Assembly (NCBI GenBank): GCA_965197825.1
Contig: CBDANW010000002.1
Coordinates: 1,146,551 to 1,210,550, forward strand
From: Candidatus Marinacidobacterales bacterium
GTDB lineage: Bacteria > Acidobacteriota > Vicinamibacteria > Marinacidobacterales > DATDRI01
Reading direction: 5' to 3'
Length of the DNA stretch: 64,000 nucleotides
How positions within the stretch are numbered: position 1 is the first letter of the stretch; each line of letters starts with the position of its first letter. The notes under the pieces were generated by a model. That model did no database searches. It worked only from the letters and a program-made list of their open reading frames with translations, and had not been told where the DNA came from. The position numbers were made by a program, and so were the translations under genes. Shown here piece by piece: positions 16,358-40,071 of the stretch.

Positions 16358-17400
16358 CTTCAAGTTTGAAGCGCACCATTCGTTAGAGCCCATGGAAACG
16401 TTCCTCCGGTGTGCGGTAGCCGAGTCTCTTGCGGGGCCGTGAGTTGAGCTTGTTTGCGATACGATCGCAGTCGCGTTGCGTGAGCGCTGCTTGGCTGGTG
16501 CGCTTCGGCAGGTATTGTCGTAGCAGGCCATTGAAGTTCTCGTTGCTGCCTCTCTCCCATGAGTGATAGGGAGTTGCGAAGTAGAACTTGACGCCGGTCG
16601 CTTCCTCGACGGATTCGTAGTCGTGGAACTCCGTACCATTGTCCGCGGTGATCGTCTTGACCTGCTCCGGCACCCGCCGGAGCAACATCTTCGTTCGCTG
16701 ACTAGTGCTGAACATGGTGCGGTCGGACAGCTTGCCGATCAGCGCATAGCCCGTCTTTCGTTCCACGAGCGTGGTTACGCAGTCCGGCGCGCCTTTTCCT
16801 ACCACGGTGTCGATCTCCCAGTGGCCAACGGCACTGCGCTTGTCGACACAAGGCGGCCGCTCGGAGATATGACGCTTCCCGGCCAGGTGGCCTCGGCTGT
16901 CATAGCTGTTGTGGCGCTTGCGTCTAAGTTTGGGTGAGCATCGAAGGTGGCGGTATAGATGTCCTCCGGCCTCCTTGTCCCGCCAGACGTGGGTGTAGAT
17001 CGTCTCGTGGCTGATCGAGAGCTCGCCGTGAAGGCGCAGGTGGCCGGAGATCTGCTCTGGGCTCCAGTCAGCCTTAAGCTTCTTCTCCACTAGGGCAAAG
17101 TCGGCCTTTGTGAAGTACTGGTTCCGGCGAGACCGCGATCGTCGTCCGTTCGTTTTCTCGATGGCCTTGCTCGGCCGGTAGCATCCATCACTACGTGAGC
17201 TGTTCCTCCTGACCTCTCTCGAGATTGTGCTCCGGTGGCGCCCCAGGCGCCGCGCAATCTCGGCCGAGCAAAATCCCTCCCGTCGCAGCGCCGCGATGGT
17301 GTATCGTTCTTCCAAGGTGATCTGGTAATAAGTCATTAGCGAGTCCCCATTCTTGGTTGTTTGAGGAATCGTGGCACATTCCAGGTCACCTCATCCGGGA
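16358..17400 (-). mobile_element. IS30-family insertion sequence (boundaries approximate)
   Basis: Contains an intact IS30-type transposase gene. The stop lies about 25 bp from the left boundary as usual for IS30. Terminal IRs were not resolved by eye. Confidence 0.7.
16383..17336 (-). CDS. IS30-family transposase
   Basis: N-terminal HTH (ITLEERYTIAALRREGFCSAEIARRLGRHRSTISREVRRN), DDE core with GHWEIDTV, TADNGTEF and PYHSWERGSNENFNGLLRQYLPKRT. Confidence 0.9.
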   Translation of the reverse strand: MTYYQITLEERYTIAALRREGFCSAEIARRLGRHRSTISREVRRNSSRSDGCYRPSKAIEKTNGRRSRSRRNQYFTKADFALVEKKLKADWSPEQISGHLRLHGELSISHETIYTHVWRDKEAGGHLYRHLRCSPKLRRKRHNSYDSRGHLAGKRHISERPPCVDKRSAVGHWEIDTVVGKGAPDCVTTLVERKTGYALIGKLSDRTMFSTSQRTKMLLRRVPEQVKTITADNGTEFHDYESVEEATGVKFYFATPYHSWERGSNENFNGLLRQYLPKRTSQAALTQRDCDRIANKLNSRPRKRLGYRTPEERFHGL

Positions 17401-17766: not shown

Positions 17767-19271
17767 ATGGGCCAATCGGGCAATCTCCACCTTGCCCTGG
17801 ATCGCGGCTCGGACGTGCCGCTCTACGAACAGGTCCGTTCGCATATCGCCAGCCTCGTTACGAGCGGTGAGCTCGCCTCCGGGACCCGCCTGCCAGCGAC
17901 ACGCGACTTGGCCCGTGATCTGAGCGTAAACCGAGCCACCATCGCGAGCGCCTATGAAAGCTTGGCGACTGATGGTCTGGTTCGCTCTCATGTGGGCCAA
18001 GGAACGTTCGTCCTGGAAGCAGAGCCGCATCGCGCGTCGACGCCGTTGTGGCCGCTTTCTCGAGCGATGGAGGCGGCGAGCCGACAGCTTCTTCCTACGA
18101 CGCCACCGACCGAACACCCGGACCCGATCGACTTCGCCTCGCTCATCCCTGACGAAGAGCTCTTCCCGGTCGAACCCTTCCGAAAGACCATCGACACCGT
18201 CCTGCGGCAGCGAGGCAAGGAGCTGCTCCAATACGGGACGGTCGCCGGCTACCCGCCTCTCCGCCAGTACATCGCCGAGTGGCTTGGCGAGCGAAACGTG
18301 GAAGCCACCGCCGAGCACGTCCTCATCGTCAACGGCTCGCAGCAGGGGTTGGATCTGGTGTTCCGCACTCTAGTGAATTCGGGAGACAGCGTGGCGGTGG
18401 AGAGTCCGACGTATACTGTCGTTCTACCGGTCCTCGCCTATTACCAGGCCCGCGCGATCGGCATCCCCATGACCGACCGCGGCATGGATCTCGAGGCCCT
18501 CGAATCGGCCCTGGCCCGCGGCTCGGTGCGACTCATCTACACGATGCCCACGTTTCACAACCCCACGGCTTGACGATGGATCTCGAAACGAGACAGTCGC
18601 TTCTTCGGTTGGCGGGTCGTCACGAAGTGCCCATCATCGAGGACGACTTCGACTCCGAGCTTCGTTTCCACGGACAGGCCCTGCCTCCCATCAAAGCACT
18701 CGACATCGAGGGCATCGTGCTCTACCTGGGAACCTTCTCCAAAGGACTCTTCCCCGGCCTGCGCTTGGGATGGATCGTGGCACCGCCCGAGCTGATTCGG
18801 ACACTGAGTCGAGCAAAAATGTTTACCGATTACCACACGAGCCCGCTTCTTCAAGCAGCCGTCTTGGAGTTTTGTGAGCACGGACACTACCAGGAACACC
18901 TGAAGCACCTGGCGCGCGTGAACCGAGAGAAGAGCCGGATCTTGGTGCGAGCCTTGACTCGCCATTTCCAGAGCGAAGTTTCCTGGACCGAGCCGGAAGG
19001 AGGCTACGCTTTCTGGATCGCTCTTCCGGAACGCCTTTCCAGCGAGCACCTACTCTCGCAGGGAGCACGAGAAGGCGTTCTGTTCACGCCCGGCAGTCAG
19101 TTCTTCACTGGCGACGAGGGGGATCGCTTCTTACGACTGTCCATCTCGCGCGTGCCCACGGACAAGATCGAAGAGGGCGTTCGGCGACTGGCGAGACTCA
19201 TCGAGCGGCAGATGGCCCAGGAGCCCGGACACCCTTTGCAGACGCCGGGTGAGCTGATGTTTCATATCTAA
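17767..19271 (+). pseudogene. MocR/GabR/PdxR-family regulator (GntR HTH + class-I aminotransferase-like domain), frameshifted
   Basis: GntR-type wHTH (LYEQVRSHIASLVTSGELASGTRLPATRDLARDLSVNRATIASAY) then a PLP fold. Frame 1 stops at TFHNPTA* (18573). The continuation GLTMDLETRQSLL...GTFSKGL (Lys of PLP site) runs in the next frame (18279-19271 ORF). One missing G in acgg(g)cttgacg explains the shift. It lies directly upstream of pdxS-pdxT, so it is likely a PdxR-like regulator. Confidence 0.7.
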
Positions 19272-20872: not shown

Positions 20873-21155
20873 AGAATCACCGGGTTGTCCCCGCTCGTTC
20901 AGGAAACCCTATCGCATTTCCTCGAGAACCCGGTTCCGTTTCGAGTGATGGGCTCCGCGGATCCTTCGATCCACGAGGCGGTTCGTCAGGGGGATTTCGA
21001 CCGGCGACTCTTCCACCAGCTGTCGGCGGTGCGCACCCCCATACCACCTTTGCGAGCGAGGCGGGGGGACATCCCGGCGCTGGCGGGGCACTTCTTGAAG
21101 CGTTGCTACGATCGGTTCCACCTCAAACCGCTAGGGGTCCCTTCGCACACCATCG
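20873..21155 (+). pseudogene. Sigma-54-dependent activator remnant, part 1 (end of the AAA+ sigma54-interaction domain), 5'-truncated and interrupted by IS256
   Basis: In-frame, immediately after the pdxT TAA: LSPLVQETLSHFLENPVPFRVMGSADPSIHEAVRQGDFDRRLFHQLSAVRTPIPPLRARRGDIPALAGHFLKRCYDRFHLKPLGVPS. This matches NtrC-family motifs (GxFRxDLxYRLnv..IxLPPLReRxeDIplLaxHFL). Receiver and Walker-A parts are absent. Confidence 0.65.
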
Positions 21156-21186
21156 GGTGATGTCTTAAGATCCCTGTCAAAGAATA

Positions 21187-22662
21187 ATGATGTATGGTTC
21201 CCCGAACTCAAAACCGTCTCCGTCATTTGGGACAGAAAAGGAGAACCATACATCATGGGGAAGGTACTACCGAGTCAACGATTACTCAAGCAGTTCAAGG
21301 AACGACTGGTATTCGGGGAAGATGAATCTCTCGGAGATCGTCCGTTCGGGAGCGCAGATGATGCTTCAGTACGCGCTGGAGCGAGAGGTGACGGAGGCGT
21401 TGGGTCGAAGCTACTACGAGAACGCGCCGGAGATGACGAAGGAGAAGGAGAAGGAGAAGGAGAAGGAGAAGGAGAAGGAGAAGGAGAAGGAGAAGGAGAA
21501 GGAGAAGGAGAAGGAGAAGGAGAAGGAGAAGGAGAAGGAGAAGGAGAAGGAGAAGGAGAAGGAGAAGGAGAAGGAGAAGGAGAAGGAGAAGGAGAAGGAG
21601 AAGGGACGTCGCAACGGGTACGAGTCGCATCGGGTTCTCACCGGCGAGGGTCCGGTGACGGTACAAGTACCGCAGGTTCGAGAGACAGAGACGGGGTTTC
21701 AGTCGAAGATACTGGATGCGTACGTGAGCCGGACGGAGAAACTCGACGAGTTGATCGCGCGAATGTACGTGCACGGGATGTCGACGCGAGACATCGAGGC
21801 GACGTTCGCGGACGTGTTGAGCGGGACGGGGGTGTCGAAGTCAGTGGTGAGCCGCGTGACGCAGTGCTTGTCGGAGGATTTCGAGACCTTTCGTCAGCGG
21901 GAGCTCTCGAAGGAGGAGCTGGTGTATCTGGAGCTCGACGGGATCTACCTACGCTACCACCAGGGAGCGGATAAGAAAGAACCGATTCTGGTCGCCACGG
22001 GCTATCGTGTTGATGGGACGCGGATTCTGCTTCACATCGGTGTCGGTAATCGAGAATCCTACGAGAACTGGAAAGGATTCTTGCAAGAGATGGTGGCCCG
22101 GGGACTGAGAGAACCGTTGCTCATCGTGACCGACGGGAATCCGGGAGTGCTGAAGGCGATGGAGGAAGTCTTCCCTCGAAGCATGAAGCAACGCTGCCAG
22201 AAACATCGGCTGGAGAACATCCTGGGCAAGGCCCCGAAGGAAGTCCGCGCCGAGCTCAAGGCAGCCATCCTCGAGTCGTTCCATGCGCCGAGCTACGAGC
22301 AAGGGCTGAACAAGGGCCGGGAGGTGATTGCTCGGTACCGCCAACGATTTCCGAGCGCGATGAAGTGCATGGAGGAGACCCTCGAAGCCTGTCTTCAGGC
22401 ACTACGACTTCCTCCGTCGCATCACAAGCGGCTTCGAACCGCGAACCTGCTCGAGCGCACCTTCGGAGAGCACAGACGTCGGACGAAAGTGATTCCTCAC
22501 TTCTTCACCGAGGAGGCCGCCATGAAGCTCAGCTACGCCGTCCTCCTGGCCGTCGCGAATAAATGGCGCAGAGTAAGGATGGATGTCTTCACGGCCAGGA
22601 AAGTCGAGGAGCTTCGGAACAAGCTCCTCCCACAACTCACGTCCAAGGAGTCAGCAGCCTAA
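21187..22662 (+). CDS. IS256-family transposase (copy C1) carrying an in-frame (KE)n expansion and an N-terminal +1 frameshift relative to copy C2
   Basis: Conserved IS256 core (MYVHGMSTRDIEATFADVL...YLELDGIYLRYHQ...LHIGVGNRESYENWKGFLQEMVARGL...IVTDGNPGVLKAM...CQKHRLENIL...RTANLLERTFGEHRRRTKV). It has an extra A in ggggaagatg (about 21316) versus copy C2. The likely functional start is MNLSEIV at 21322. Confidence 0.85.
   Translation: MMYGSPNSKPSPSFGTEKENHTSWGRYYRVNDYSSSSRNDWYSGKMNLSEIVRSGAQMMLQYALEREVTEALGRSYYENAPEMTKEKEKEKEKEKEKEKEKEKEKEKEKEKEKEKEKEKEKEKEKEKEKEKEKEKEKEKGRRNGYESHRVLTGEGPVTVQVPQVRETETGFQSKILDAYVSRTEKLDELIARMYVHGMSTRDIEATFADVLSGTGVSKSVVSRVTQCLSEDFETFRQRELSKEELVYLELDGIYLRYHQGADKKEPILVATGYRVDGTRILLHIGVGNRESYENWKGFLQEMVARGLREPLLIVTDGNPGVLKAMEEVFPRSMKQRCQKHRLENILGKAPKEVRAELKAAILESFHAPSYEQGLNKGREVIARYRQRFPSAMKCMEETLEACLQALRLPPSHHKRLRTANLLERTFGEHRRRTKVIPHFFTEEAAMKLSYAVLLAVANKWRRVRMDVFTARKVEELRNKLLPQLTSKESAA
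21438..21603 (+). repeat. (GAGAAG)n hexanucleotide microsatellite, about 27 units, encoding (EK)n inside the transposase
   Basis: Perfect ggagaa/gagaag tandem run. The homologous site in copy C2 (about 58330) carries one to two units (TTKEKGRR). Confidence 0.95.
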
Positions 22663-23676: not shown

Positions 23677-24228
23677 GTGAAGAAACGATGGATAACCTCG
23701 CTAGGGCTGGTTGTCCTTATGGCGGTTCTGGCAACGGGGCTGGTTGGCTGCAGTAAGGAAGTACCTCCACCCCCACCTCCTCCGGCCGAGGAGCCACCAC
23801 CGCCACCACCGCCCCCACCACCCCCACCGCCACCCCCAGAGCCCACAGACGCGGACCGCTTTTCTGCCGCTTCGATCGCCCAGCTCGAGGGGAACTTGAC
23901 GGACGCCCATTTCGACTACGACCGGTCCGATCTACGGCAGGATGCCAGAGATGCGTTGGCCAGTAGCTCGGAGTGGCTAAAGCTCAGCTACAACACGGCG
24001 GTGATCGAGATCGAGGGGCACTGCGACGAGCGAGGGACCGTGGAGTACAACCTGGCACTCGGCGAGCGCCGAGCCCAGTCGGCCATGGACTATCTTGTCT
24101 CTCTTGGCGTCCCTGCCAACCGGCTCCGTACCATCAGTTATGGTAAGGACCGACCGGTTTGCACCGACTCGAACGAGAGCTGCTGGCAGCAGAATCGCAG
24201 GGCCCACCTGCGGATCGCTTCCAAGTAA
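23677..24228 (+). CDS. OmpA-family peptidoglycan-associated lipoprotein (Pal-like)
   Basis: Lipobox LVGCS, Pro-rich linker (PPPPPPPAEEPPPPPPPPPPPPPPPEP), C-terminal OmpA domain (HCDERGTVEYNLALGERRAQSAMDYLVSLGV...RLRTISYGKDRP). Confidence 0.85.
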   Translation: MKKRWITSLGLVVLMAVLATGLVGCSKEVPPPPPPPAEEPPPPPPPPPPPPPPPEPTDADRFSAASIAQLEGNLTDAHFDYDRSDLRQDARDALASSSEWLKLSYNTAVIEIEGHCDERGTVEYNLALGERRAQSAMDYLVSLGVPANRLRTISYGKDRPVCTDSNESCWQQNRRAHLRIASK

Positions 24229-26312: not shown

Positions 26313-27128
26313 TTAAAGGGGATGCGGGTCTCGGTCCCATAGGATATGGTCGGCTTCGAAAACGGGGCCTTCGGTGCAAGCGCGCCGGTACTCTCCCTCT
26401 GCTTCCGTTTGCCCGGGCAGATGGGTGAAAACGACGCAACCCAAACAGCAGCCCATGCCGCAACCCATGCGCCGCTCGATGGAGACCTGGTGAGGCACCT
26501 TCCGCTCGGCCGCTATTTCCGCAACGCGTCTCAACATGCCGGACGGACCACAGGAATAGAGCCGAACCAGTTGGGACTCGTCCAAGACTTCCGTCAAGAG
26601 ATCCGTGACGACTCCCCGCCGACCTTGGCTGCCGTCTTCCGTGGTACAGGCAACGTCCATTCCCAACTCGGCGAACTCGTCCTTCAAATAGAGGTCGTGT
26701 GACTGGCGCCCTCCCAGAAGGACCTTGGCCACCACTCCTGCTCGCGCCAACGACTCGCAAAAGCAGAGGAACGGCGCAATGCCCACGCCGCCCGCCACGA
26801 TGACCGGTCGCATTCCCTCGGACGGTGGATCGAACGACGTTCCCAATGGTCCAAGACAATGGACTTGCCCACCTATCGGTAGCTCAGCCAAGGCTCGCGT
26901 CCCTTGCCCCACCACTTTCACGAGAAGACTAAAACGACTCTTCTCCGGTTGAGCCGAGCAGATGGAATAGGGGCGCCGCAGCAAAAGACCCTCGCCGGGA
27001 GTTCGCAGCATCGTGAACTGACCGGGTAAGAACGTCGTCGAGAGGTTCGGTGCTTCGAAGAAAAGGAGCTGGGCATCCGGTGAGAGGACGCGCCGGTCGA
27101 CTAAAACCGCCCTCTCGTCTTCCTTCAT
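26313..27128 (-). CDS. pyrK: Dihydroorotate dehydrogenase electron-transfer subunit
   Basis: FAD/NAD-binding ferredoxin-reductase fold (RPYSI) and C-terminal 2Fe-2S motif CGMGCCLGC; 271 aa. Confidence 0.9.
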   Translation of the reverse strand: MKEDERAVLVDRRVLSPDAQLLFFEAPNLSTTFLPGQFTMLRTPGEGLLLRRPYSICSAQPEKSRFSLLVKVVGQGTRALAELPIGGQVHCLGPLGTSFDPPSEGMRPVIVAGGVGIAPFLCFCESLARAGVVAKVLLGGRQSHDLYLKDEFAELGMDVACTTEDGSQGRRGVVTDLLTEVLDESQLVRLYSCGPSGMLRRVAEIAAERKVPHQVSIERRMGCGMGCCLGCVVFTHLPGQTEAEGEYRRACTEGPVFEADHILWDRDPHPL

Positions 27129-27213
27129 TTCGCAACGAGTATAACACGAAGGCTTCGATGGTCATTGTGGGGCCAGCCCAGTCTTTGACACCGACTTACG
27201 AATGTGATAATCA

Positions 27214-28461
27214 ATGAGGACACAAAACAGTCAAAAGTACCCAAAAAAAAAACAACCGAAGAAAACCGTGTTCAGCTACCAAGACATAGGTCTAGCACTC
27301 GACTCTCGTGAGTGCGTCGTCCTCCACTCCCGGCGGGGGGAGGTCGAAGAACAGCGGACGCCTGCCCTCGCACAAGTCAACGGAAGAGAGATTCGCGCGG
27401 TTGGCCAGATAGCCTTTCGCCTGGTCGGTAAATCGAACGACATCGTTTACGTCTTTCCCGGGCGGGTCGAAGACCCGCTCGTGCTCAGCGGCTATCTGGA
27501 AATTATCGTTCCACCGTCCTCGAGCTGGTCCCGGCGACGCCTGTGGGCCACCGTTCCCACCGCCTCCAGCCTTCAAATGCAGCTGAATCTGAGAAGCTGT
27601 CTCGACCACAGCATTCGCTCCAAAGACATCATCCTGGTTCCGGAGATCCTCGCCGCCGCTTTGGGTGCCGGGCTGCCGGTCCTGAGACACGATGAAGACT
27701 CTCACCGGGCGCGCATGGTGGTGCACGTCGGCAGCACACGGATCGCTGCCGGCGTCTTCGTGGACGGAAATCTAGCGAGCCTGGTGGTGCGGGATGGCAG
27801 CTGGGATCGCCTCGTTCGCGACGTGCAGGAAAACCTTCAGTTCCGACTCGGCACGACCTTCGGTTTCAATACATTTCACAAAGTGGTTCGCACACTGTCC
27901 AAGAGCTTCTTCGATCGGCAGGTGAACGACGCGACCCGAGTCAGGACACCTCCCAATCAGGATATCCCGACCTCCCCACCGACGAGTGTGCCGCCGGTTG
28001 AAGCGGTGCCGGCCGAGCTCGAGCCCGCGGGCGAGGTGCTTCCCGAGGTGTCTCCTCCGTCCAATCTACGAAGCTTCAGTGAGCGAGGGCTCATCGAATA
28101 CGTCATCGAGGACGAGACCATCAGCCGGGCGATCGATCTTCAGCTGAAGAATCTCATGTTCGCCATCGAGAAGGTCATCTTCGGCTGCTTCGCCGAATTG
28201 AAGGGCGCCGGGCGAGGGGAGATCGCGAGCGATCTCTTTTCTGACCGAATCCTACTCTGCGGGGACGTCTACTTCGAGCCGGCCGCTTTGACGCGGTATT
28301 TCTCTCGCCTGACTCGATTTCGCTTCGAAAGCGTGAACGGGCATTCCGTTTCCAAGGGACTTCGCCGCATCTTGACCTCGGATCCGATTCACAAGAAGAA
28401 CTATCGAGAGCTCGCCGGAACCATCAACGAGATGGAGCGCCTCCACCAGAGCCGCATCTAG
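27214..28461 (+). CDS. Divergent MreB-like actin-fold (ASKHA) protein with degenerate nucleotide-binding motifs and a Pro-rich insertion
   Basis: Aligns by eye to MreB along its length. ILVPEILAAALGAGLPV matches LIEEPMAAAIGAGLPV, MVVHVGSTRIAAGVFVDG matches MVVDIGGGTTEVAVISLNG, and RILLCGDVYFE matches IVLTGGGALL. Phosphate-1 reads QDIGLALDSRE instead of DLGTANT. It also has a Lys-rich N-terminus and a PTSPPTSVPPVEAVPAELEPAGEVLPEVSPP insert. Confidence 0.6.
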   Translation: MRTQNSQKYPKKKQPKKTVFSYQDIGLALDSRECVVLHSRRGEVEEQRTPALAQVNGREIRAVGQIAFRLVGKSNDIVYVFPGRVEDPLVLSGYLEIIVPPSSSWSRRRLWATVPTASSLQMQLNLRSCLDHSIRSKDIILVPEILAAALGAGLPVLRHDEDSHRARMVVHVGSTRIAAGVFVDGNLASLVVRDGSWDRLVRDVQENLQFRLGTTFGFNTFHKVVRTLSKSFFDRQVNDATRVRTPPNQDIPTSPPTSVPPVEAVPAELEPAGEVLPEVSPPSNLRSFSERGLIEYVIEDETISRAIDLQLKNLMFAIEKVIFGCFAELKGAGRGEIASDLFSDRILLCGDVYFEPAALTRYFSRLTRFRFESVNGHSVSKGLRRILTSDPIHKKNYRELAGTINEMERLHQSRI

Positions 28462-28556
28462 CGACTTCGCTTCGCCAAAACCGCACCGCAAGGCGCTGAC
28501 TCCCCAGGGAGCCGTCAACACCCCAGACGGTGGATGTCGGCGTGGGTCGGCTAGAG

Positions 28557-29291
28557 TCAGGCGGCGTAGACGGTTTGATAGATGCGACCGATCTTCCCTC
28601 GCTGCGTGAGCCTATAGAAGTGGCGCAGCTCGGTGAGTAGATCGGCGACCCGAGACCGACTGAGGAAACGCCGCATCAAGAAGGAGCAGTAGCTCCGCGC
28701 AAAGGAGCTTGCGGTTAGGTAGCGCTCGCGACGGGTGTGATCCAACCCGTCGCGCAAGTCGAAATCGTCGAACAGGCGGTCCAGGAGTTTGGTCGGGATC
28801 CGGCCGCCGTTCTCGCGAGCCATCAACAGCGCCGACGTGACGAATTTGTCGACTTCCGCCTGAAGCTCCAGCTCCAGTTGAGTGACCGACTTGTCGCGGT
28901 TGGCGTTCCACATCAGATACGCAAAATGGCTGACTTCCTCGATCGCGGTGCAGAGCGCGGCGAAGTGATCCGAAGCAAGTCCGTTGGAGAGATCGAGCAC
29001 GTCCAAACGAGCGAGCGTTTCCTCGCCAATGTAGACGCCCAGCTCGATCTCTTCGTCTTCCTCGCCCTGGTGGACGATCACCGCTCCCCCCACGGTGCGC
29101 TCGCCTGACAGGATCTGGCAGGTCTCCCGGCTTATCAGGAACTGCTCGATCTCGACCTGGAGCTCCAGGTCGTAGATACGATCGAGCTGGGATAGGAGGT
29201 TCGCGAGCATCGAACGACGCCTACTGGAGGATCTTCGGGCCCGGAGCGGGAAGAACGCCGTGCTCACGCAACATCGCGCCAGCGCGCTCAC
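28557..29291 (-). CDS. Hypothetical protein (no recognisable family)
   Basis: 244-aa ORF with uniform coding potential, downstream of and nearly abutting the 29221-29835 gene. The likely start is the internal Met (MLANLLSQLDRIYD) at about 29210. No motif recognised. Confidence 0.4.
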   Translation of the reverse strand: MSALARCCVSTAFFPLRARRSSSRRRSMLANLLSQLDRIYDLELQVEIEQFLISRETCQILSGERTVGGAVIVHQGEEDEEIELGVYIGEETLARLDVLDLSNGLASDHFAALCTAIEEVSHFAYLMWNANRDKSVTQLELELQAEVDKFVTSALLMARENGGRIPTKLLDRLFDDFDLRDGLDHTRRERYLTASSFARSYCSFLMRRFLSRSRVADLLTELRHFYRLTQRGKIGRIYQTVYAA

Positions 29292-29835
29292 TCCCCGTCC
29301 GCAGCCACTTCTCGTAAAGCCGGAGCAGGCTCGTGTGATCGGTGAGCGCGCTGGCCTCGCTCACTTCGGTCAACACGTCCACGAAACAAGGGAACTTCTC
29401 GGAAAGCTCTTCGAACACTGCCGCCGCGGTTTGATAGGCACTCAAGCGCGCGGCCCTCCCGTAAGCGTAGCATCCCATGCTCACGTAGTAGTCGAAATCG
29501 ACGGGCTTGCGCGCGACGCTGTCCGAGAAGAATCCGGAGATGAACAACGACAGGTCACCGGTCGCCTTGAACAGGGTGAATCGACGCGCGTCTCCGCCGG
29601 CGATCGCTTCGCAGAGCAGGTGAGCGAGAGGCTGGTCGTAGTCGACCCCCGCATCTCGATACGCGCGGTCGGGGCGGACGAAAGAATCGAGGAGCTGTAC
29701 CAAGTAGAACGCCGACACTTCGCTCGACGCCACTTTCTGTTTCGCCATCGCTTTTTCGACTAGTTCCCGAAAATACTCAGTAGGCGTTTGGGCATTCACG
29801 GAACTCTCCTTCGCTTGCAACCGGTTGTGATACAT
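29221..29835 (-). CDS. Hypothetical protein (no recognisable family)
   Basis: 204-aa ORF. Its stop overlaps or is within 10 nt of the next gene start, suggesting an operon with 28557-29291. No motif recognised. Confidence 0.4.
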   Translation of the reverse strand: MYHNRLQAKESSVNAQTPTEYFRELVEKAMAKQKVASSEVSAFYLVQLLDSFVRPDRAYRDAGVDYDQPLAHLLCEAIAGGDARRFTLFKATGDLSLFISGFFSDSVARKPVDFDYYVSMGCYAYGRAARLSAYQTAAAVFEELSEKFPCFVDVLTEVSEASALTDHTSLLRLYEKWLRTGSERAGAMLREHGVLPAPGPKILQ

Positions 29836-30014: not shown

Positions 30015-30491
30015 TCAAATATCGAGCAACCTTCCGTGCTCGACCATGATGCAACGATTCATCACCACCGCGATCCCCGCGTCTTGGGCTCTAAGCGCCG
30101 ACTCGTCGTCGATGACACCAAGTTGAAACCACAAAGCCGGGACACCCGCCGCGATCGCCTCGTCGGTGTGCCGGGGTAGGTGTCGCGGGCGCCGGAACAC
30201 GTTCACCAGATCGATCGTCTCCGGAACATCAGCCAAGCGCGCATAACACGGCCGGCCGAGTATCTCTTCGCTGTCTGGACGCACGCCGAAGACGAGGTAG
30301 CCGCGATCGATCAAGTAGGTGGCGATCCGGTGGCTCGGCCGGTGAGGCTGGGGCGACAAGCCCACCACCGCGATGGTACGGACTCGCTTCAGGAGGTCCC
30401 GGATCTCGGCGTCGGTTGGGTTCTTGAAGCCGCGGCCAGACGTGCCCAATGGACTCCTTTCATCCCACGAACGACGCTCTTCGTAACCCAC
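30015..30491 (-). CDS. CoA-binding domain protein (YccU-like)
   Basis: IAVVGLSPQPHRPSHRIATYLIDRGYLVFGVRP...ETIDLVNVFRRP...AIAAGVPALWFQLGV fits the small CoA-binding family. Confidence 0.75.
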   Translation of the reverse strand: MGYEERRSWDERSPLGTSGRGFKNPTDAEIRDLLKRVRTIAVVGLSPQPHRPSHRIATYLIDRGYLVFGVRPDSEEILGRPCYARLADVPETIDLVNVFRRPRHLPRHTDEAIAAGVPALWFQLGVIDDESALRAQDAGIAVVMNRCIMVEHGRLLDI

Positions 30492-30610
30492 TGAGGCCGT
30501 GCAGTTTTGACATATTATCCCCGAACGTGCAAAAATAGGAGACTTTTCTCTTCCCGTGCGGGTGTTTTCTTCAAGTATCCGGTAGCAAACGGTTCTCCGA
30601 ATCGGAAAGC

Positions 30611-31411
30611 ATGGACTTTCTCAAGAACGTCTTGCCGGCCCCGGTGGTCGACATCTTTGTCCCCATCTTCCTGGTTCTGCTGGCAGTCTACTTCCTGCAC
30701 AGTTATCTGATTCCGCCTTTGAAGCGTAAGCTCCAGGAGTCGGGAGCCTGGCGCCAGATCGTTGATCGTTTCGGGGGCGAGAGGCTACGCCAGCTCCAGT
30801 TCAACCGTGAAATCGCGAGCCTGAAGAAAAGTGGCGATCTCATGGGGGCCGCACAACTCTACGAAGACGCGGAGTGGTACGAGCAAGCTATCGAGACCTA
30901 CATCGGGGCCGGTGAATTCATCGCCGCCGGGACGCTCTACGAGAAGTTGGAGTACTGGGAGCACGCCGCCGACATGTACCGGCAGGCCGACGACTGAAAA
31001 CGAGCCGCCAACACCTTAGCCTCCGCCGGGCAAGGCGTAAAGGCCGCCGAGGTCTACGAAGAACACGGACAGAAGATCGACGCGGCGAAGCTTTACTTCG
31101 ATGCGGGGCGATTCGACCGCGCGGCCGAGTTGTACGAAGCCGTCTCCTACTATCCCCAGGCAGCGCAAGCCTACGGGAAGCTGGGAAATTCCATGAAGGC
31201 CGCGGAAAGCTACGAGAACCAACAGAGCGAGTCCCTCCTGCAAGCGGCCAACGTGTATCTCCGCGCCGAAAAGAAAGAAGAAGCGGCCACGATGTTTGCG
31301 AAAGGCGGAGACGCTTTGATGGCCGCCAAGCTCTACGCAGACATCGGCAAAGACGCCGAGGCCTCGGAGCTATTCGAGAAGGCAGAACATTACTTCGAAG
31401 CGGGCCGACTA
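30611..31411 (+). pseudogene. 5' part of a repeat-protein/kinase-like gene: tandem 13-residue AAxxYxxxGxxxx repeats, in-frame TGA, then IS630 insertion
   Basis: ORFs 30611-30997 and 31130-31429 are in the same frame, separated by a single TGA (30995-30997). At least 10 consecutive 13-aa units are present (AAEVYEEHGQKID, AAKLYFDAGRFDR, AAELYEAVSYYPQ, AAQAYGKLGNSMK, ...). Confidence 0.6.
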
Positions 31412-32500
31412 GTGGACTGTAACAACTGAACGTTTAGTGGTTTTAATGCGTCGTGACGGATCGTTGTAGGTCCACTTCACGGGCTTGGGGTCTTCGTTGT
31501 ACTTGCGAATGTAGCGCATGATCTTGCGGGTCAGGTCGTGGGTTGACGTGAACACGCCTCGATGGATCAGGGCACGCTCGATCTTGGAGAACCAGAGTTC
31601 GATTTTGTTCAGCCAGGAGGAATATGTGGGTGTGAAGTGGAGTCGGACTTTTGGGTTGGCCTCGAGGAACTGTGCGACCTTGGCGGTCTTGTGAGCCGAC
31701 AGATTGTCGAGGATGACATGTATTTCGCGCTTTCGCTTGTGGCTCGCAACCAGCTGCTCCAAGAAGGCGACGAACTCCTGGCTGGTATGGCGGCGGACAG
31801 TCTTGCCCAAAACCACCCCCGTCTTCGTGTCGAAGGCGGCGTAGAGAGAAAGCGTTCCATGCCGGACGTACTCGAAACCGTGTCGCTCGGCCCGCCCGGG
31901 AGACAACGGCAAAATCGGGTCCCGTCGATCCAGGGCTTGGATCGCCGTTTTCTCATCAATACAAAACACCGCAGCGTGCTGAGGTGGATTCATATATAGA
32001 CCGATGATATCCGCTGCCTTCGTCTCGAAATCCGGATCGTTGGAGGCCTTGTAATGCTCAATTCGGTGTGGCTGGAGACCATGCTTTTTCCAAGTGCGAG
32101 CCACCATCATGTGATGGATTCCCAGCTTCTTCGCAAGTCGACGCGTGCTCCAGTGAGTCGAGCCGTCGGTCGGTTTTTTCTGCGTCCACGAAAGAATCCG
32201 TGCTTCCATCCGAGGCGTGAGCACTTGAATCGGACGCCCCTCGTGACGCGCGTACAGACCTGCCAGACGCTCCTCCAAGAATCGGCGTTTCCACTTGCTG
32301 ATAAAAGGCGCCGTGCAGCCCACCGTCTGCTGCACCTGCGTATAGCTTGCACCGTCTGCCAGCAAGAGCAACATCCGAGCGATCCGCGCGTCATCCGCTC
32401 GACCGCTACAGCTCGAAACTCGTTTGCCAAGCTCCCTATGTTCCGCTTGAGTCAACACAACGGCTCTCCCTCGCATGAAAGAGATATTACAACTAAACAC
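31409..32500 (-). CDS. IS630-family (Tc1/mariner-like DDE) transposase
   Basis: HTH N-terminus, FCIDEKTAIQAL, HGFEYVRHGT, ILDNLSAHKT and FTPTYSSWLNKIELWFS motifs. The probable start is MRGRAV (32476). The stop codon is formed at the IS/target junction. Confidence 0.9.
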   Translation of the reverse strand: MFSCNISFMRGRAVVLTQAEHRELGKRVSSCSGRADDARIARMLLLLADGASYTQVQQTVGCTAPFISKWKRRFLEERLAGLYARHEGRPIQVLTPRMEARILSWTQKKPTDGSTHWSTRRLAKKLGIHHMMVARTWKKHGLQPHRIEHYKASNDPDFETKAADIIGLYMNPPQHAAVFCIDEKTAIQALDRRDPILPLSPGRAERHGFEYVRHGTLSLYAAFDTKTGVVLGKTVRRHTSQEFVAFLEQLVASHKRKREIHVILDNLSAHKTAKVAQFLEANPKVRLHFTPTYSSWLNKIELWFSKIERALIHRGVFTSTHDLTRKIMRYIRKYNEDPKPVKWTYNDPSRRIKTTKRSVVTVH

Positions 32501-32506
32501 TTAAAT
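31412..32506 (-). mobile_element. IS630-family insertion sequence (1095 bp) flanked by TA duplication
   Basis: Terminal IRs gtggactgtaacaactgaacgtttagtg / cactaaacacttaaatgttacagtccac. TA at 31410-31411 and 32507-32508. Removing the element restores an open frame ...EKAEHYFEAGRLANQLGDEEQAIRLF.... Confidence 0.9.
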
Positions 32507-32508
32507 GT

Positions 32509-33476
32509 TACAGTCCACTAGCCAACCAGTTGGGCGACGAGGAGCAGGCGATTCGACTGTTTCAACGAATCGACTCGTCGGATCAGAACTACGAAAACGC
32601 CACGCTGCTTCTCTCGCGGCTTTTCCTCAACAAGGGCATGGTTTCCCTGGCCCAGGAAAAGCTCCAGCGGGTCCTGCGGGATCGACCCATCGGCAACCAG
32701 ACGCTGGAACACTATTATTGTCTTGGTCTGGTCTACGAAAAGCTGGGCAAGCGTGACGAAGCGCTCGAAACCTTCCGCAAGGTCATGTCCGAGCGCTACG
32801 GTTACGAAGACGTCGAAGAACGGATCGCTCAAGCTTCTGTAGGATCGCGCGGTGGTCGAGCTCTTCCTGGCGGAGGCCAAGATCGCAAAGACCTTCGACC
32901 ATCCCAATCTGGTCCGGTTGCTCGGTTTGACGGAAATGCGAGGGCACAAAGTTGTGGTCACCGAGTACGTGGAGGGAAAGAGCCTCGACGCGCTCCTATC
33001 CGGAAACAAGCGGTTGGGCGTCAAACAAGCGCTCGATGTGCTGTCGACGCTTTGCATCGCGCTCGGCTACGCCCATCAGAGAAAGCTGCTCCACAAGGAT
33101 CTGAAGATGACCGATGTCTTGGTCGCTCGCGGGGGGCAAGCTCCGGCTCGCGGGGCTCGGACTGGGGGCGCTGCGGACACCCACGTCGGGAGAGGGCTAC
33201 CGGTACCCTCCTCCGGAGTTCCTTGCCGGAAGCCCAACCGATGCGCGAACGGACATCTACTCGCTCGAGGGAATGCTGTTTCATGCGATCAGCGGACTCC
33301 ACCCGGGAAGCCCCGAAGCGGCAGCCAACGGAGCCCCCCCGGCCCTGCGGAAACTGGTACCCGAAGTCCCCGACTCGTTGGACGAAATCGTCACTCGTTG
33401 CCTAGCCGAGAAGCCCGAGGAACGCTTCGCCAACGTCGCCGATCTGTACGCGGCGGCCAGCGAGCTGCGCAACTAA
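32509..33476 (+). pseudogene. 3' part of the same gene: TPR-like segment followed by a degenerate Hanks-type Ser/Thr kinase domain, with at least 2 frameshifts
   Basis: TPR-like LGLVYEKLGKRDEALETFRKVM (32530 frame). Kinase subdomains FDHPNLVRLLG, VVTEYVEGKSL, HKDLKMTDVLV (HRD/KPxN degenerate), LAGLGLG (DFG replaced), PPEF, DIYSLEGMLF and C-lobe VTRCLAEKPEERF are spread over three frames (32530, 32852, 33114). Confidence 0.6.
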
Positions 33477-36356: not shown

Positions 36357-39158
36357 ATGAGCGATTCGTTCCTTCGTCGTCTTCTTTCGCCCATCCTCAC
36401 CCTACGGGAAGGCGAAGCCGCGACCGCGGTGAAGATGTTCATCTACTCCTTCCTGGTGATGACCGCCTACAACAACATCAAGCCCTCGGCGACCGCGAAA
36501 TTCATTGACGACGTCGGCGCGGACAACCTCCCCTGGGTCATGCTGGTGGCCGGTGTCGGCATGGGCTTCATCATGCAGTACTACAGCCGGCTGGTGGGCA
36601 AGCTTCCCCGCCTGTGGGTCTTGCCGGGAACACTGGTTGCAGTAGTCGGTACCTTGGTAGGCTTCTGGTTCCTCTTCCAGATCGGCCAAACCTGGGTCTC
36701 GGTCGCGTTCTATTTCTGGGGTCGGTTGCTCCTGGGTATTTTTCTCATCAGCCAGTTCTGGACCTTGGCCAACGATATCTACGATCCCCGGCAGGCCAAG
36801 CGCATCTTCGGCTTCATCGGTGGCGGGGCGAGCCTCGGCGGTATGACCGGGGCCGGGCTGACTTCGCTGCTAGCGAGGCGAGTGGGCGCGGACACCCTGA
36901 TTTTGTTCAGCGCCGGTATCTTGGCCATCTGCTTCGTTCTGGTGATTCGAATCCAACGAAAAGAACAACCCGCCGAGCGCGGCAGCATCGCCCGGAAGGA
37001 AACCCTCGGAGGCGGCGAGGCTTGGGCGATGGTCCGTCAATCGAAGCATCTAGGGCTCATCTCCTTGGTGATCGGCTTCGCCGCGCTGGGCGCGGTGACG
37101 GTCGAGCAGCAGCTCAACATGGCGGCCGAACAGTTCGTCCAGGGGGAAGACGGTATCGTTAGCTTTCTGGCGCAAATCACCTTCTACCTTTCCGCCATCA
37201 GCTTCGTCATCCAAATCTATTTTACGAGCCGCATCCACCGGTTTCTCGGCATTGGGTTCGCCTTGATGGTGCTGCCAATGAGCTTGGGGGCTTCGGCGTT
37301 TCTCATTCTGTTCCATCCGGTTCTCTTGTCGACGATGGTGGCCCGCATTACCGACACGTCGTTGCGCTACAGCCTCGACAAGACCACCCGCGAAGTTCTA
37401 TTCCAACCCCTTCCCAAAGAGACCAAGCTCAAAGCCAAGGCCTTCGTCGACGTTACGGCCGATCGGTTCATCGGAAAGGGACTCGGTTCAGTCGTTCTGC
37501 TGGTCATGCTGAAAGTCTTTGGTGTTACTTGGATGCAACTCAGTTTTCTCAGCCTCACCTATTGCGTCCTTTGGCTATTCCTGGCGAGGAAAGCAAAGAA
37601 GGAGTACACCGCCAGCTTCCGACGGAGCATCGAGCACTTGGATCTCGAACCTGTGGCGATGAGACCGCAAACGGCGGACGCGGCCACCGTGGAGACCCTC
37701 GTCGAAGAGCTGGGGAGCGCCGAAGAGCATCGTGTGCTCTACGCCATCGATCTCCTCGACTCCCTCGACAAGGCCAACCTGATTACGCCACTTCTCCTGC
37801 ACCATGAAGCCCCCGGAGTGCGTGCGCGAGCCCTGGCTAGCATCGCGGCGGCACGCCCCGAGCTCGTACACCGGTGGGCACCGGCCGTCGAGCGGGCCCT
37901 CAAGGATGAGAGCGCGGACGTGCGCGCCGCGGCGGTCACTGCCTTGGCGGCCATCCGCGGAGAGAAGAGTACGGAGTTGATGCGGCCCTATCTGAACGAT
38001 CACGATCCTCGCATCGTGGCCGCCGCCGCCGTGGTCATGGCCAGTAGCGATAGTGACGAGGACGTCGACGCGGCCGAGTCGGCGCTCCGACGAATCTCCT
38101 CAGACACCCGCGAGGGAGCGGCGGGGGCGCGGCGCCAAGCCGCGCGCGCCATCGCCCAGATCCAGAGTCCGCGATTCCGGAGCCTGCTCATCCCCCTCAT
38201 GTACGACGCCAACCTGGAAGTCGCCAAGGAGTCGATCGCAAGCGTGAGCCGCTTCGGTACGTCGGACTACATGTTCGTGCCGTCCCTCGTCTCACTCTTA
38301 CGACACCGCCGTCTCAAGAACATCGCGCGGCAGGTGCTGGTCAGTTACGGCGAGGGAGTCCTCGACGCGCTAGCGTACTTCCTGAAAGACCCCGACGAGA
38401 ACCCGTGGGTGAAACGGCACATTCCGGGCACGCTCGCCCGCATCCCGTGCGAGAGAACGGTGGGGATTCTCCTCGAAACACTCGATGACGATGACGGCTT
38501 CATCCGTTACAAAACGGTGACCGCTCTCGGGCAGATTCGTCGAGAGCATCCAGAGCTCACGATCGATCCGAAGCCCGTCGAGAAGCTCGCCCTCCGAGAC
38601 GCGTTGCGCTACTACCATTATCTCGGCGTTCACTACGGTCTATTCCAGAAAGAAGGTCTCGGGTCGGGCTCCCTCGTCGATCGAGCACTCGTGGAAAAGA
38701 TGCAGCGAGCACTCGACCGGGTCTACGAGCTGCTCGGGCTCATCTATCCTTGGAAGGACATCGCCGCGGCACGGTGGACGCTCGAACATGGCGTGGCTCG
38801 CTCCAAAGCCAGTGCCGCAGAGTACCTCGACAACATGCTCGGCGGAGACCTCCGCAAGCGTCTGATGCCAATCATGGAGGACATCCCCATCGAAGAAAAA
38901 GTGCACAGGGGCAACGTCTTCTTGAAGACACGCGTGCGGAGCACCGAAGAAACGCTGGCCCGACTCATCTATGACGACGATCCGGTCGTAGCTGCCACCG
39001 CGATCGATCTCGTTCGTGAGCAAAAGATGTGGTCTCTAGCAGACGATATCGAAGAAGTGCTTGCCTTCCGAGATGCAAAGGATTTCTTCGTCTTCGAGGC
39101 GGCGTCCTTCGCGCTGGCCGCACACCGACTTGGAGAGGAGAAGCCCCGTGCGTTTTGA
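36357..39158 (+). CDS. Fusion protein: TLC-family ATP/ADP-translocase-like membrane domain + C-terminal HEAT-repeat domain
   Basis: About 430-aa N-terminal region with about 12 TM helices and a TLC-like start (LSPILTLREGEAATAVKMFIYSFLVMTAYNNIKPSATAKF). It is followed by about 500 aa of PBS-lyase/HEAT-like repeats (HEAPGVRARALASIAA, ESADVRAAAVTALAAI, DHDPRIVAAAAVVMA ...). Confidence 0.75.
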   Translation: MSDSFLRRLLSPILTLREGEAATAVKMFIYSFLVMTAYNNIKPSATAKFIDDVGADNLPWVMLVAGVGMGFIMQYYSRLVGKLPRLWVLPGTLVAVVGTLVGFWFLFQIGQTWVSVAFYFWGRLLLGIFLISQFWTLANDIYDPRQAKRIFGFIGGGASLGGMTGAGLTSLLARRVGADTLILFSAGILAICFVLVIRIQRKEQPAERGSIARKETLGGGEAWAMVRQSKHLGLISLVIGFAALGAVTVEQQLNMAAEQFVQGEDGIVSFLAQITFYLSAISFVIQIYFTSRIHRFLGIGFALMVLPMSLGASAFLILFHPVLLSTMVARITDTSLRYSLDKTTREVLFQPLPKETKLKAKAFVDVTADRFIGKGLGSVVLLVMLKVFGVTWMQLSFLSLTYCVLWLFLARKAKKEYTASFRRSIEHLDLEPVAMRPQTADAATVETLVEELGSAEEHRVLYAIDLLDSLDKANLITPLLLHHEAPGVRARALASIAAARPELVHRWAPAVERALKDESADVRAAAVTALAAIRGEKSTELMRPYLNDHDPRIVAAAAVVMASSDSDEDVDAAESALRRISSDTREGAAGARRQAARAIAQIQSPRFRSLLIPLMYDANLEVAKESIASVSRFGTSDYMFVPSLVSLLRHRRLKNIARQVLVSYGEGVLDALAYFLKDPDENPWVKRHIPGTLARIPCERTVGILLETLDDDDGFIRYKTVTALGQIRREHPELTIDPKPVEKLALRDALRYYHYLGVHYGLFQKEGLGSGSLVDRALVEKMQRALDRVYELLGLIYPWKDIAAARWTLEHGVARSKASAAEYLDNMLGGDLRKRLMPIMEDIPIEEKVHRGNVFLKTRVRSTEETLARLIYDDDPVVAATAIDLVREQKMWSLADDIEEVLAFRDAKDFFVFEAASFALAAHRLGEEKPRAF

Positions 39159-40071
39159 GCTGCTCCCTCCCGTTCCCGCGGTTGCGCTGGCAGACCAGCT
39201 TCGTCGCATTCCCCTCTTCAGCTTCGTCAACGTCGATGAGCTGTTCCGGATCTCGTCGATCGCTCGTCAGGTGCGGTACGAAGTGGGTGCCACGATGCAA
39301 GAAGAAGGGACGCCGGTCGAGTACATCCAGGTCTTAGTGGAAGGCAGGATCCGGATCACCGGAAAGGCGCGCCAGGAGGAAGAGATGTCGCCTCCCGCGC
39401 TTCTGGGCTTCCGGGAGGTCTTGGAAGGTGCTCCGCTGCGGGAAACGGCGCAGGCGGTCGAAGGCTCCGTCTGCCTGGCGATCGCGGCCGAGGAGTTCCG
39501 GGCTCTTTTGTCGGACAACATCGAGCTAGCGCAGGGCCTGTTCCAGCAGCTCTTGAGCGCGCCCTCGAAGAACGAACGCCCCAGCTTGATGAGGCGTGGC
39601 GTCCATTTGGAAGAAAGACCACGGGCCTTGGAAGCGGGCCAGGAATTGAAACCCATCGAGAAAGTCCTGCTTCTCCAAGAGCTACCCGTTTTTTCCAGGA
39701 CCACCGCCGACGAGCTCTTTGCCCTAGCGGCGATCGCCCGGGAGTTCCCTCTCGTCGACAACGAAGGCGTCTTCAACGAGGGGGATGCGCCCGCGCTTCA
39801 CATCGTCTTGTCCGGCGAGTTTTCCGTCCAGTCACCCGACGACGATGGGCAAGCGGAAGTCGTCAGGGCCGGCGACGTTTTGGGGCTCCACGAGACACTG
39901 GCAGGGACGCCATTAGATTGGCGCGCCAAGGTGACAAAAGGGGGGATGGCACTACGGATCGAAAGGGACAAGTTGTTCGAGGTGTTAGCGGATCAGGAAG
40001 ACCTGCTCCAGGCCCTGTTCAGCGCACTCTTCCACTCTTCCGCTTCACCCGGCAATCTCGATTCGGCCTAG
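39147..40071 (+). CDS. Protein with two cyclic-nucleotide-binding (cNMP/CAP effector) domains
   Basis: The GTG start overlaps the upstream stop (ccc GTG cgt ttt ga). Two repeats each show the LRRIPLF...VDELF... pattern and GD.LG...L beta-roll elements (LLGFREVLEG; GDVLGLHETLAG). Confidence 0.8.

Follow-up and report, generated by a model that had tools for sequence, protein, structure and literature searches.

A Lineage-Specific, MreB-Derived Actin-Fold Protein of Vicinamibacteria-Type Acidobacteriota with a Non-Canonical, Most Likely ATPase-Dead, Nucleotide Site

Can an MreB-type actin fold be maintained in a bacterium after the residues that hold Mg-ATP have been replaced, and if so, as what kind of protein? 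The question is raised by a gene in a 64,000-nucleotide stretch of DNA (hereafter, the window) from a Candidatus Marinacidobacterales bacterium (assembly GCA_965197825.1, contig CBDANW010000002.1, positions 1,146,551 to 1,210,550). The original prediction, made from the DNA letters, had named an open reading frame (ORF) at 27214-28461 on the plus strand as an MreB-like protein with degenerate ATP-binding motifs, next to two genes of unknown type that are here called unkA and unkB. That ORF is present, and our analyses indicated that its product is very probably derived from MreB and has a non-canonical, most likely ATPase-dead, site. On balance we favor, from the sequence and its predicted structure, reading the gene (assigned below to 27268-28461) as a lineage-specific MreB descendant in which the actin fold persists but the site for Mg-ATP hydrolysis, and probably the binding of nucleotide too, is gone, and which would serve a nucleotide-independent structural or regulatory role.

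Profile searches and structure prediction both connected the protein to MreB. The sole Pfam family match was MreB_Mbl (PF06723), at 27.3 bits against a gathering score of 27.0 and over residues 23-178, the N-terminal half (residue numbers throughout are those of the 415-residue ORF that begins at 27214). Scores with the NCBIfam MreB models were far under their cut-offs (PRK13927, 24.2 vs 293 bits; PRK13929, 22.9 vs 515; TIGR00904, 19.6 vs 365.75). A single-sequence search of the Protein Data Bank (PDB) identified Caulobacter crescentus MreB at E = 0.005, a search with the family profile returned MreB chains only (best E = 3.9e-6), and hhalign of the family against 32 MreBs gave a probability of 99.5 % and E = 1.2e-22 over residues 19-235. 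The AlphaFold2 model, built from 65 family sequences, had a predicted local distance difference test score (pLDDT) of 76 and a predicted template modeling score of 0.75, with disorder only at residues 1-21 and 242-282. When this model was compared with the PDB by Foldseek, the top 25 matches were all MreB (E ~1e-14, 15 % identity, template modeling score 0.71-0.75 on the target); BeeR, actin, Hsp70 and MamK ranked lower. The predicted structure had the four-subdomain actin fold that is nearest to MreB structures. The alignment to MreB over all five actin-fold motifs that had been proposed held in part: residues 19-235 were matched significantly by sequence, whereas the C-terminal half was matched by predicted structure only. 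The profile search and structure prediction that had been suggested as checks thus gave MreB_Mbl as the only family and an MreB-type fold. Scans of the MreB-like, unkA and unkB proteins with PADLOC and PHROGs identified nothing significant, and tblastn with canonical MreB revealed no second mreB in the 64 kb of the window.

To describe the nucleotide site, residues were counted in 66 family sequences and compared with those of the 32 MreBs. Three independent alignments (the single-sequence PDB match, the family profile and hhalign) agreed on the register of the motifs; the adenosine motif was placed by a global MAFFT alignment and by the fold, not by hhalign. The phosphate-1 loop (27289-27315, plus strand; residues 26-34) reads GLALDSREC where GIDLGTANT is canonical: Asp is replaced by Ala28 and Gly by Asp30, each in 59 of the 66 sequences, and all 66 have Glu or Asp33 for Asn and Cys34 for Thr. 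The phosphate-2 loop (27715-27747, plus strand; residues 168-178), directly preceded by a five-residue insertion (DSHRA), reads MVVHVGSTRIA for canonical MVVDIGGGTTE, with His171 for Asp in 65 of 66 sequences, Arg176 for Thr in every one, and Ser/Ala-Thr/Ser for the Gly-Gly pair. These comparisons confirmed the degeneracy that the original prediction had described for both phosphate motifs. The adenosine motif (28246-28275, plus strand; residues 345-354) was similarly degenerate, RILLCGDVYF as opposed to GIVLTGGGAL; in place of the canonical L-T-G-G-G-A the family has L-C-G-D-V-Y/F, in which Gly350 is invariant, the following Gly is Asp or Glu351 (66/66) and the next is Val or Ile352.

Four of the five Mg-ATP or catalytic residues have consequently been replaced (Asp by Ala28, Asn by Glu33, Asp by His171 and Thr by Arg176), bulky or charged side chains now occupy the Gly-rich phosphate and adenosine loops, and what is kept of the conserved MreB/Mbl site is Glu144 and one glycine per loop. 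Glu144, the catalytic or hub residue, was retained in 62 of 66 sequences. It lies in the connect-1 helix (LVPEILAAALGAGLPV; 27634-27681, plus strand; residues 141-156), whose motif LVPE-x-LAAA-x-G-x-GLP, with Pro155 in at least 90 % of sequences, is the best-conserved stretch common to the family and canonical MreB. Also kept were Asp87, in G-R-V-E-D-P (MreB G-V-I-x-D), and Lys73, in V-G-K-S (MreB G-R/K-T-P). In P0327, which diverges most within the family (42 % identity), L-I-L-D-S-R-E-C, Glu144, Arg176 and the G-D pair are all present, and position 171 is Val. In the actin fold, the phosphates are held by the backbone amides of the glycine loops.

The effects of losing the equivalent residues have been studied in ScMreB5, in which Asp12, Asp156 and Glu134 hold the water shell of Mg2+. 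Glu134 also positions the catalytic water, together with Thr161; Asn17 is a conserved residue, and ATPase activity was lowered in every single alanine mutant (Pande et al. 2022, PMC9195046). Among the mutants made there (D12A, D156A, E134A and T161A), the family naturally carries a counterpart of D12A, and its residues at the positions of D156 and T161 are changed as well; it differs from these mutants in that the changes are combined and fixed by selection, the loops are remodelled, and the Glu equivalent to E134 is kept. The combined replacements therefore amount to several ATPase-lowering equivalents plus the loss of the glycine loops, fixed by selection. Based on the loss of catalytic and metal-binding residues under purifying selection, the protein is probably an actin-fold pseudo-ATPase, and loss of ATPase activity is predicted. 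In the ScMreB5 study, filaments of the ATPase-deficient E134A protein still assembled whatever the nucleotide state (PMC9195046), and nucleotide-free assembly of the MreB fold is therefore plausible.

The constraint on the gene was strong. Relative to the 87 %-identical orthologue at locus L011 (loci with the gene or its neighbors in other genomes are given L numbers), the ratio of non-synonymous to synonymous substitution rates (dN/dS) was 0.059, and for the same pair of loci it was 0.072 for pyrD, 0.121 for pyrK, 0.137 for pyrF, 0.055 for unkB and 0.133 for unkA. The frame was intact in at least 65 homologues, and the cleft loops were the most conserved segments of the family. A word-indexed search of 5.8 billion proteins retrieved 85 relatives with at least 51 % identity, the next match being canonical MreB at E = 1.8e-5. 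An exhaustive profile search of 1.84 billion representatives at 50 % identity identified two full-length clusters (P0028 and P0327) and ten fragments; below all of these was a gap in E-value from 6e-21 to 2.6e-8, at which ordinary MreBs begin, and no intermediates to canonical MreB were present among those representatives. In 185,579 species-representative genomes the gene was found at 12 loci, a count from a pattern-based scan that may have missed some, all in metagenome-assembled genomes labelled as Vicinamibacteria, Candidatus Marinacidobacterales or uncultured Acidobacteriota. In the genomes scanned, the family is narrow and confined to Vicinamibacteria-type Acidobacteriota. Its members are named "hypothetical protein" or "rod shape-determining protein" in the databases, and no account of it came up in a search of the literature on MreB in Vicinamibacteria and on MreB paralogues that are degenerate or pseudo-ATPases.

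The extent of the gene required revision. The longest ORF (27214-28461, plus strand) has 415 codons, and most of the 65 aligned full-length homologues open with M-F-(S/G/R), which corresponds to a GTG codon at 27268. More than 50 % of the family is gapped over ORF residues 1-18, and the remainder is unrelated in sequence there. The 18 codons in question (MRTQNSQKYPKKKQPKKT; 27214-27267, plus strand) are unmatched in homologues, encode residues with pLDDT below 50 in the AlphaFold2 model, and probably belong to an A-rich untranslated 5' leader. This leader holds a 16-nucleotide A-rich insertion that is specific to the window when compared with the orthologous loci, and it is this insertion that produces the Lys-rich (KKKQPKK) reading. 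Immediately upstream is a promoter-like element (27185-27211, plus strand) with a -35 box, TTGACA, at 27185-27190 and an extended -10 box, TGTGATAAT, at 27203-27211. The ATG at 27214 is 3 nucleotides past the -10 box and, judged from the position of this conserved element, is at or before the predicted start of transcription. From the homologue starts and the promoter position together, the coding sequence is therefore assigned to 27268-28461 (plus strand), with a GTG start and a product of 397 residues. The KKKQPKK N-terminus that had been described for the protein is almost certainly untranslated and arose because the longest ORF had been chosen.

When the DNA between pyrK and the MreB-like gene was aligned, both promoter boxes proved to be conserved in most of the nine loci with this arrangement while the flanking DNA had diverged. 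The exceptions were a -35 box of TTGCTT in L017 and some variation of the -10 box, such as GTGGTATC in L005. A simple promoter scan had missed the element because of its spacer of 15 nucleotides; the same scan detected no terminator between the MreB-like gene and the convergent unkA. The MreB-like gene had a host-like codon composition, with a GC content at third codon positions (GC3) of 0.72, and all three ORFs had the codon-position profile of real genes (GC3 0.72-0.79 vs 0.42-0.43 at second positions, in a window of ~60 % GC).

The gene was found in at least five unrelated genomic contexts. In class I it is divergent from pyrK (the window, L005, L006, L011 and L014-L018; L013 has the same downstream genes and is cut upstream of the gene). 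In class II it lies between two small unknown ORFs (L001, L002 and L019), in class III directly after gcvT-gcvH-gcvP (L020-L022 and L024), in class IV after a PrpD-family gene (L003 and L004), and in class V it follows a sigma-70 gene (L012). The classes had no partner gene in common with one another. An extended -10 box was present upstream in four of the five: classes II-IV have TGnTATACT 30-75 nucleotides before an ATGTTC start, the pyrK context has the full -35/-10 pair, and no TGnTATACT-type box was found upstream in L012. Since the contexts change and the gene has its own promoter-like element, we regard it as a stand-alone gene, which from these arrangements would be transcribed on its own in every context. 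The Pfam families of MreC, MreD and FtsW/RodA were not found among the window genes scanned or within 8-10 kb on either side of the MreB-like gene in L001, L003, L005, L006 and L011; the loci from the species-genome scan were checked by tblastn for other genes only.

Boxes of the form TATA(A/C)T with an extended -10 upstream context are rare in general in this GC-rich DNA. Only three occur in the 64-kb window, each of them a short way before the start of a gene; positions noted in the window are 27138-27146 (minus strand, before pyrK), 45580-45589 (plus strand) and 53371-53362 (minus strand). In L001, L003 and L019-L024 the MreB-like gene is likewise preceded by an extended -10-like box (TGnTATACT or TATAAT), and a clear -35 box accompanies such a box only before the MreB-like gene. 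Boxes of this type could help to recognise promoters in this group of uncultured Acidobacteriota.

Outside the nucleotide site, the protein departs from MreB in several further places. The Pro-rich insert that had been predicted is present in subdomain IIB, at approximately residues 242-282 (27937-28059, plus strand), and is disordered in the model (pLDDT 34-39). It is 34-51 residues long in the family, as compared with a median of 6 in MreBs; its sequence is not conserved and is rich in Pro (17 %), Ala (16 %) and Glu (12 %). At the other end, a conserved part extends past the last MreB-like strand (28345-28458, plus strand; pLDDT 83-93) and consists of helices at residues 378-387 and 391-407, the second of which runs past the canonical end of MreB and has no counterpart in the MreB alignment. 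Conserved residues of this region include GLRRIL, Lys394, Tyr397 and Arg398. The N-terminal amphipathic helix of MreB is absent, as judged from the start position and the alignments, because the protein begins 5-6 residues before strand 1. Where the MreBs of Thermotoga maritima and Spiroplasma have their membrane-insertion loop, the family has a conserved Arg-rich loop (RRRLW, with Arg107-Arg109), whose hydrophobic residue is not conserved.

The suggestion that the protein is a non-hydrolysing filament or scaffold paralogue remains, in our opinion, the best reading of these data, given that the replacements at Ala28, Glu33, His171 and Arg176 have been fixed under a dN/dS of 0.059. As to mechanism, we tentatively propose a scaffold or a regulator. 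The protein would work without nucleotide turnover as a structural or regulatory subunit, either as a static homopolymer or scaffold, or by docking on, capping or modulating canonical MreB filaments. In the cleft, the acidic residues Asp30, Glu33 and Asp351 may pair with the basic residues Arg32, His171 and Arg176, so as to lock it in one state in place of Mg-ATP. The retained Lys73 and Pro155 (the latter in GAGLP of MreB) would tentatively correspond to the longitudinal contact between Lys57 and Pro149 in ScMreB5. The disordered IIB loop, which is at a position of MreB protofilament contact, may act as a flexible spacer or as an arm for binding a partner, and the Arg-rich loop at 107-109 may provide an electrostatic contact with the membrane.

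Several points weigh against this reading. The kept Glu144 and Asp87, along with the highly conserved cleft loops, would fit just as well with a protein that still binds a ligand, and non-canonical loops are tolerated by some ATP-binding actin-fold proteins. The salt-bridged cleft, while plausible, was deduced from the sequence and not from the coordinates of the model, and the tentative mapping of ScMreB5 Lys57 to Lys73 is by numbering offsets, not by an alignment with ScMreB5. The gene neighborhood offers no functional clue. In addition, a paralogue that acts on MreB would presuppose a canonical mreB in the same genomes.

The first of these points leads to the alternative that fares best, which we nevertheless consider unlikely: that the protein is a repurposed ligand-binding member of the ASKHA superfamily, a sensor or an enzyme, whose cleft has been remodelled for a ligand other than Mg-ATP (a metal-independent nucleotide, a phosphorylated metabolite or a peptide). 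It would account well for the cleft loops being the most conserved segments, with fixed charges at Asp30, Arg32, Glu33, Glu144, His171, Arg176 and Asp351, for retention of the catalytic Glu144 and of Asp87, and for a dN/dS of 0.06, which indicates that a precise function is maintained. However, the glycines whose backbone amides bind phosphate have all been replaced by residues with side chains, except for Gly173 and Gly350, and both of the Asp residues that hold the Mg2+ waters are lost. Moreover, no metabolic or signalling partner is encoded in any of the five contexts, and the nearest structural relatives are filament formers (MreB, BeeR and actin), not kinases. We retain the nucleotide-independent MreB descendant as the preferred reading.

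The two genes downstream of the MreB-like gene in the window raised a different possibility, that the three form one functional module. unkA (28557-29210, minus strand) encodes a protein of 217 residues and unkB (29221-29835, minus strand) a conserved protein of 192-204 residues with no family match. The longest ORF for unkA, 28557-29291 (244 residues), had been taken to overlap unkB. Homologues of 216-217 residues support a start at ATG 29210, 10 nucleotides after the TAG of unkB; the genes abut, and the overlap is an artefact of the longest ORF. Both are real genes, as opposed to spurious ORFs of GC-rich DNA, with 797 (unkA) and 4269 (unkB) homologues at E <= 1e-3 and dN/dS values of 0.133 and 0.055, respectively. 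Neither matched a Pfam or NCBIfam family, and profile searches of the PDB by sequence identified nothing for either. The pair, with its 10-nucleotide spacer, was conserved in L005-L011, L013-L016 and L018. A comparison of unkB with unkA by hhalign gave a probability of 0.5 %, leaving paralogy unsupported; a weak, non-significant local resemblance was seen between FVDVLNEVSE and TAIEEVSHF.

On the minus strand upstream of the MreB-like gene in the window are pyrK (26313-27128), pyrD and pyrF, and downstream of the pair are a gene for a CoA-binding protein (30015-30491) and then a TPR-Ser/Thr-kinase gene. The arrangement at L007-L010 (7400-11100) was informative. There, a T2SSE/MshEN ATPase gene, unkB, unkA, pyrK, pyrD, pyrF and a glutaredoxin-like gene are co-directional and follow a TPR-kinase gene on the minus strand, unkA is ~56 nucleotides from pyrK, and no MreB-like gene is present; in class I genomes, the MreB-like gene is between unkA and pyrK on the opposite strand. 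Judged by gene order, the unkB-unkA pair is ancestrally joined to pyrK-pyrD-pyrF and not to the MreB-like gene, and from the uninterrupted unkB-unkA-pyrK order in relatives the adjacency in the window would be a lineage-specific juxtaposition. A class II-type member (P0463) and an unkA homologue (P0145) come from contigs of equal length, 2.94 Mb, which suggests without proving it that the MreB-like gene is located elsewhere in genomes whose operon is uninterrupted.

A single three-gene module is accordingly very improbable. The genes are adjacent in the window and within 0.1-2.6 kb of one another in L005, L006, L011, L013-L016 and L018, as such a module would have it. Set against this, L007-L010 have unkB-unkA immediately before pyrK and on its strand, with no MreB-like gene, neither unkA nor unkB is within 10 kb of the MreB-like gene in L001-L004 and L019-L024, and both are missing beside it in L017. 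Variable cargo (a histone deacetylase gene, an M24 peptidase gene or an 84-90-residue ORF) may intervene, the genes are convergent, a separate promoter-like element precedes the MreB-like gene, and the family sizes are very unequal, at 86, 797 and 4269 matches. The link between the MreB-like gene and a two-gene operon that the original prediction had implied was thus not upheld, as the pair adjoins pyrK without the MreB-like gene and the latter occurs in four other contexts without the pair. The idea that the three genes are an accessory block fared no better: the codon composition is host-like, the constraint is comparable to that on pyrD, and unkB-unkA are old neighbors of the pyr genes. The gap between the MreB-like gene and unkA is 95 empty nucleotides in the window, and its contents in relatives (an M24 peptidase gene, a histone-deacetylase-family gene or the 84-90-residue ORF; L005 11293-13668, L011 11176-12329, L006 11321-11593) mark the site as a rearrangement hotspot.

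The view that the two neighbors have no recognisable family was correct by sequence, but the predicted fold of unkA was gluzincin-like (thermolysin/M1). Its predicted structure had the thermolysin-like catalytic fold, with an active-site helix (residues 80-104) that carries an invariant E91-E92-x-x-H95, followed by a helix with Glu113 and Glu115. The motif is E91-E92-V-S-H95, and in 117 sequences an invariant Glu takes the place of the first His; unkA accordingly has EExxH with a distal Glu and not HExxH. Its EExxH...E corresponds to the HExxH...E layout at thermolysin-like spacing (H+20) with the first His changed to Glu. As compared with the gluzincins aminopeptidase N (M1), thermolysin (M4) and PepF (M3), unkA is 7-13 % identical, has only 217 residues and no accessory domains, and lacks the first zinc-binding His, and it is, by its fold, a putative metallopeptidase. 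This small gluzincin-like protein and a second conserved protein just upstream of pyrimidine genes may be of separate interest.

Less probable again is that the gene is a canonical rod-shape MreB/Mbl orthologue whose odd motifs result from misalignment. Such an origin could explain why the Pfam MreB_Mbl match just reaches the gathering score (27.3 vs 27) and why NCBI names some members "rod shape-determining protein". Yet, as had been anticipated, there was no confident match to an orthologue: the NCBIfam scores were 19.6-24.2 bits where 293-515.75 are needed, identity to MreB structures was 15 %, and three alignments gave the same register. The protein also has no N-terminal amphipathic helix and a 40-residue insert, mreC, mreD and rodA are not near at the five annotated loci, and no intermediates exist in the 1.84 billion representatives. 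Least likely of all is that the gene is spurious or in decay, an MreB copy turned pseudogene in a region ridden with insertion sequences (IS): the window does contain nine or more transposase genes, and several of its host genes are broken, but the frame is intact in at least 65 homologues, dN/dS is 0.059, the substituted residues are fixed rather than random, the fold is predicted with confidence and the promoter is conserved.

The flank was, as predicted, disrupted by an IS element: an IS630-type transposase gene (DDE_3; 31409-32500) splits the TPR-Ser/Thr-kinase gene. In L005, L006 and L011 the latter is intact and encodes ~810 residues; in the window (30611-33455) it is a pseudogene with additional frameshifts at ~32840 and ~33135. 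In relatives a T2SSE/MshEN ATPase gene (L005 15657-17270; L015 14243-15814) separates the CoA-binding and TPR-kinase genes; it is absent there from the window (30492-30610, 120 nucleotides between the flanks), L011, L013, L014 and L016. The transposase genes, five Mutator-family, one IS30-like, one IS630 and two IS66, are at 10763-11827, 16383-17336, 21187-22662, 31409-32500, 43520-45028, 49589-50608, 55376-56584, 58055-59407 and 61082-61966. Host genes that appear truncated relative to L011 and L005 encode an HD-GAF protein (15782-16357), a GntR-aminotransferase (17767-18573) and the remnant of a sigma-54 activator (20885-21160). Elsewhere in the window are an OmpA-family lipoprotein-like gene (23677-24228, plus strand), whose product has a long poly-proline linker (PPPPPPPAEEPPPPPPPPPPPPPPPEP) after the signal and lipobox, and a gene for a 933-residue protein (36357-39158, plus strand) with an MFS/TLC (ATP/ADP-translocase-like) membrane domain fused to HEAT repeats, as in L011, followed by one for a cyclic-nucleotide-binding protein (39061-40071, plus strand). 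Rfam, at gathering thresholds, and ARAGORN identified no RNA genes in the whole window.

Among known systems, MreB itself (C. crescentus, PDB 4CZE/4CZF; PF06723) is the closest, at 15 % identity, and the family fails the NCBIfam cut-offs by more than 270 bits. It differs from MreB in the replaced Mg2+-binding or catalytic Asp, Asn, Asp and Thr, the loss of the Gly-rich loops and of the N-terminal amphipathic helix, the 34-51-residue disordered IIB insert, the C-terminal helical extension, and a location that is not beside mreC, mreD, pbp2 or rodA. BeeR (PDB 8R2N), MamK, ParM, Alp7A, FtsA and PilM, as far as is known, keep canonical nucleotide motifs, and their genes usually accompany those of functional partners; the sequence profiles of the family match MreB only. 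Non-catalytic actin-fold subunits are known in Arp7/Arp9 and the Arp4-type subunits of remodellers, in the cytoplasmic domain of GspL/EpsL of the type II secretion system, and in TsaB/YeaZ. Arps occur among the fold matches of the MreB-like protein, but all of these are independent lineages within defined complexes with known partners and have no specific relationship to the family.

Divergent bacterial actins are common; the unusual feature here is that a gene under strong constraint has lost its nucleotide site. The general view is that bacterial actins need to bind and hydrolyse ATP. Hydrolysis has been called an "inevitable feature" of MreB function (PMC9195046). Our boldest speculation, which we hold as rather doubtful, is that the family represents the first MreB-derived "pseudo-actin" of bacteria, an analogue of the Arps in which an internal charged network stands in for Mg-ATP and which polymerises free of nucleotide or caps, nucleates or tethers MreB, with its arm recruiting a partner. 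Members of the family should, in any case, not carry the name "rod shape-determining protein MreB". The Vicinamibacteria are abundant in soil, and next to nothing is known of their cell biology. If the family has indeed discarded the Mg-ATP site, it would provide a natural "locked-state" MreB for structural work, and it would mean that bacteria, as eukaryotes have done with the Arps, can make from an actin a structural or regulatory module that works independently of nucleotide.

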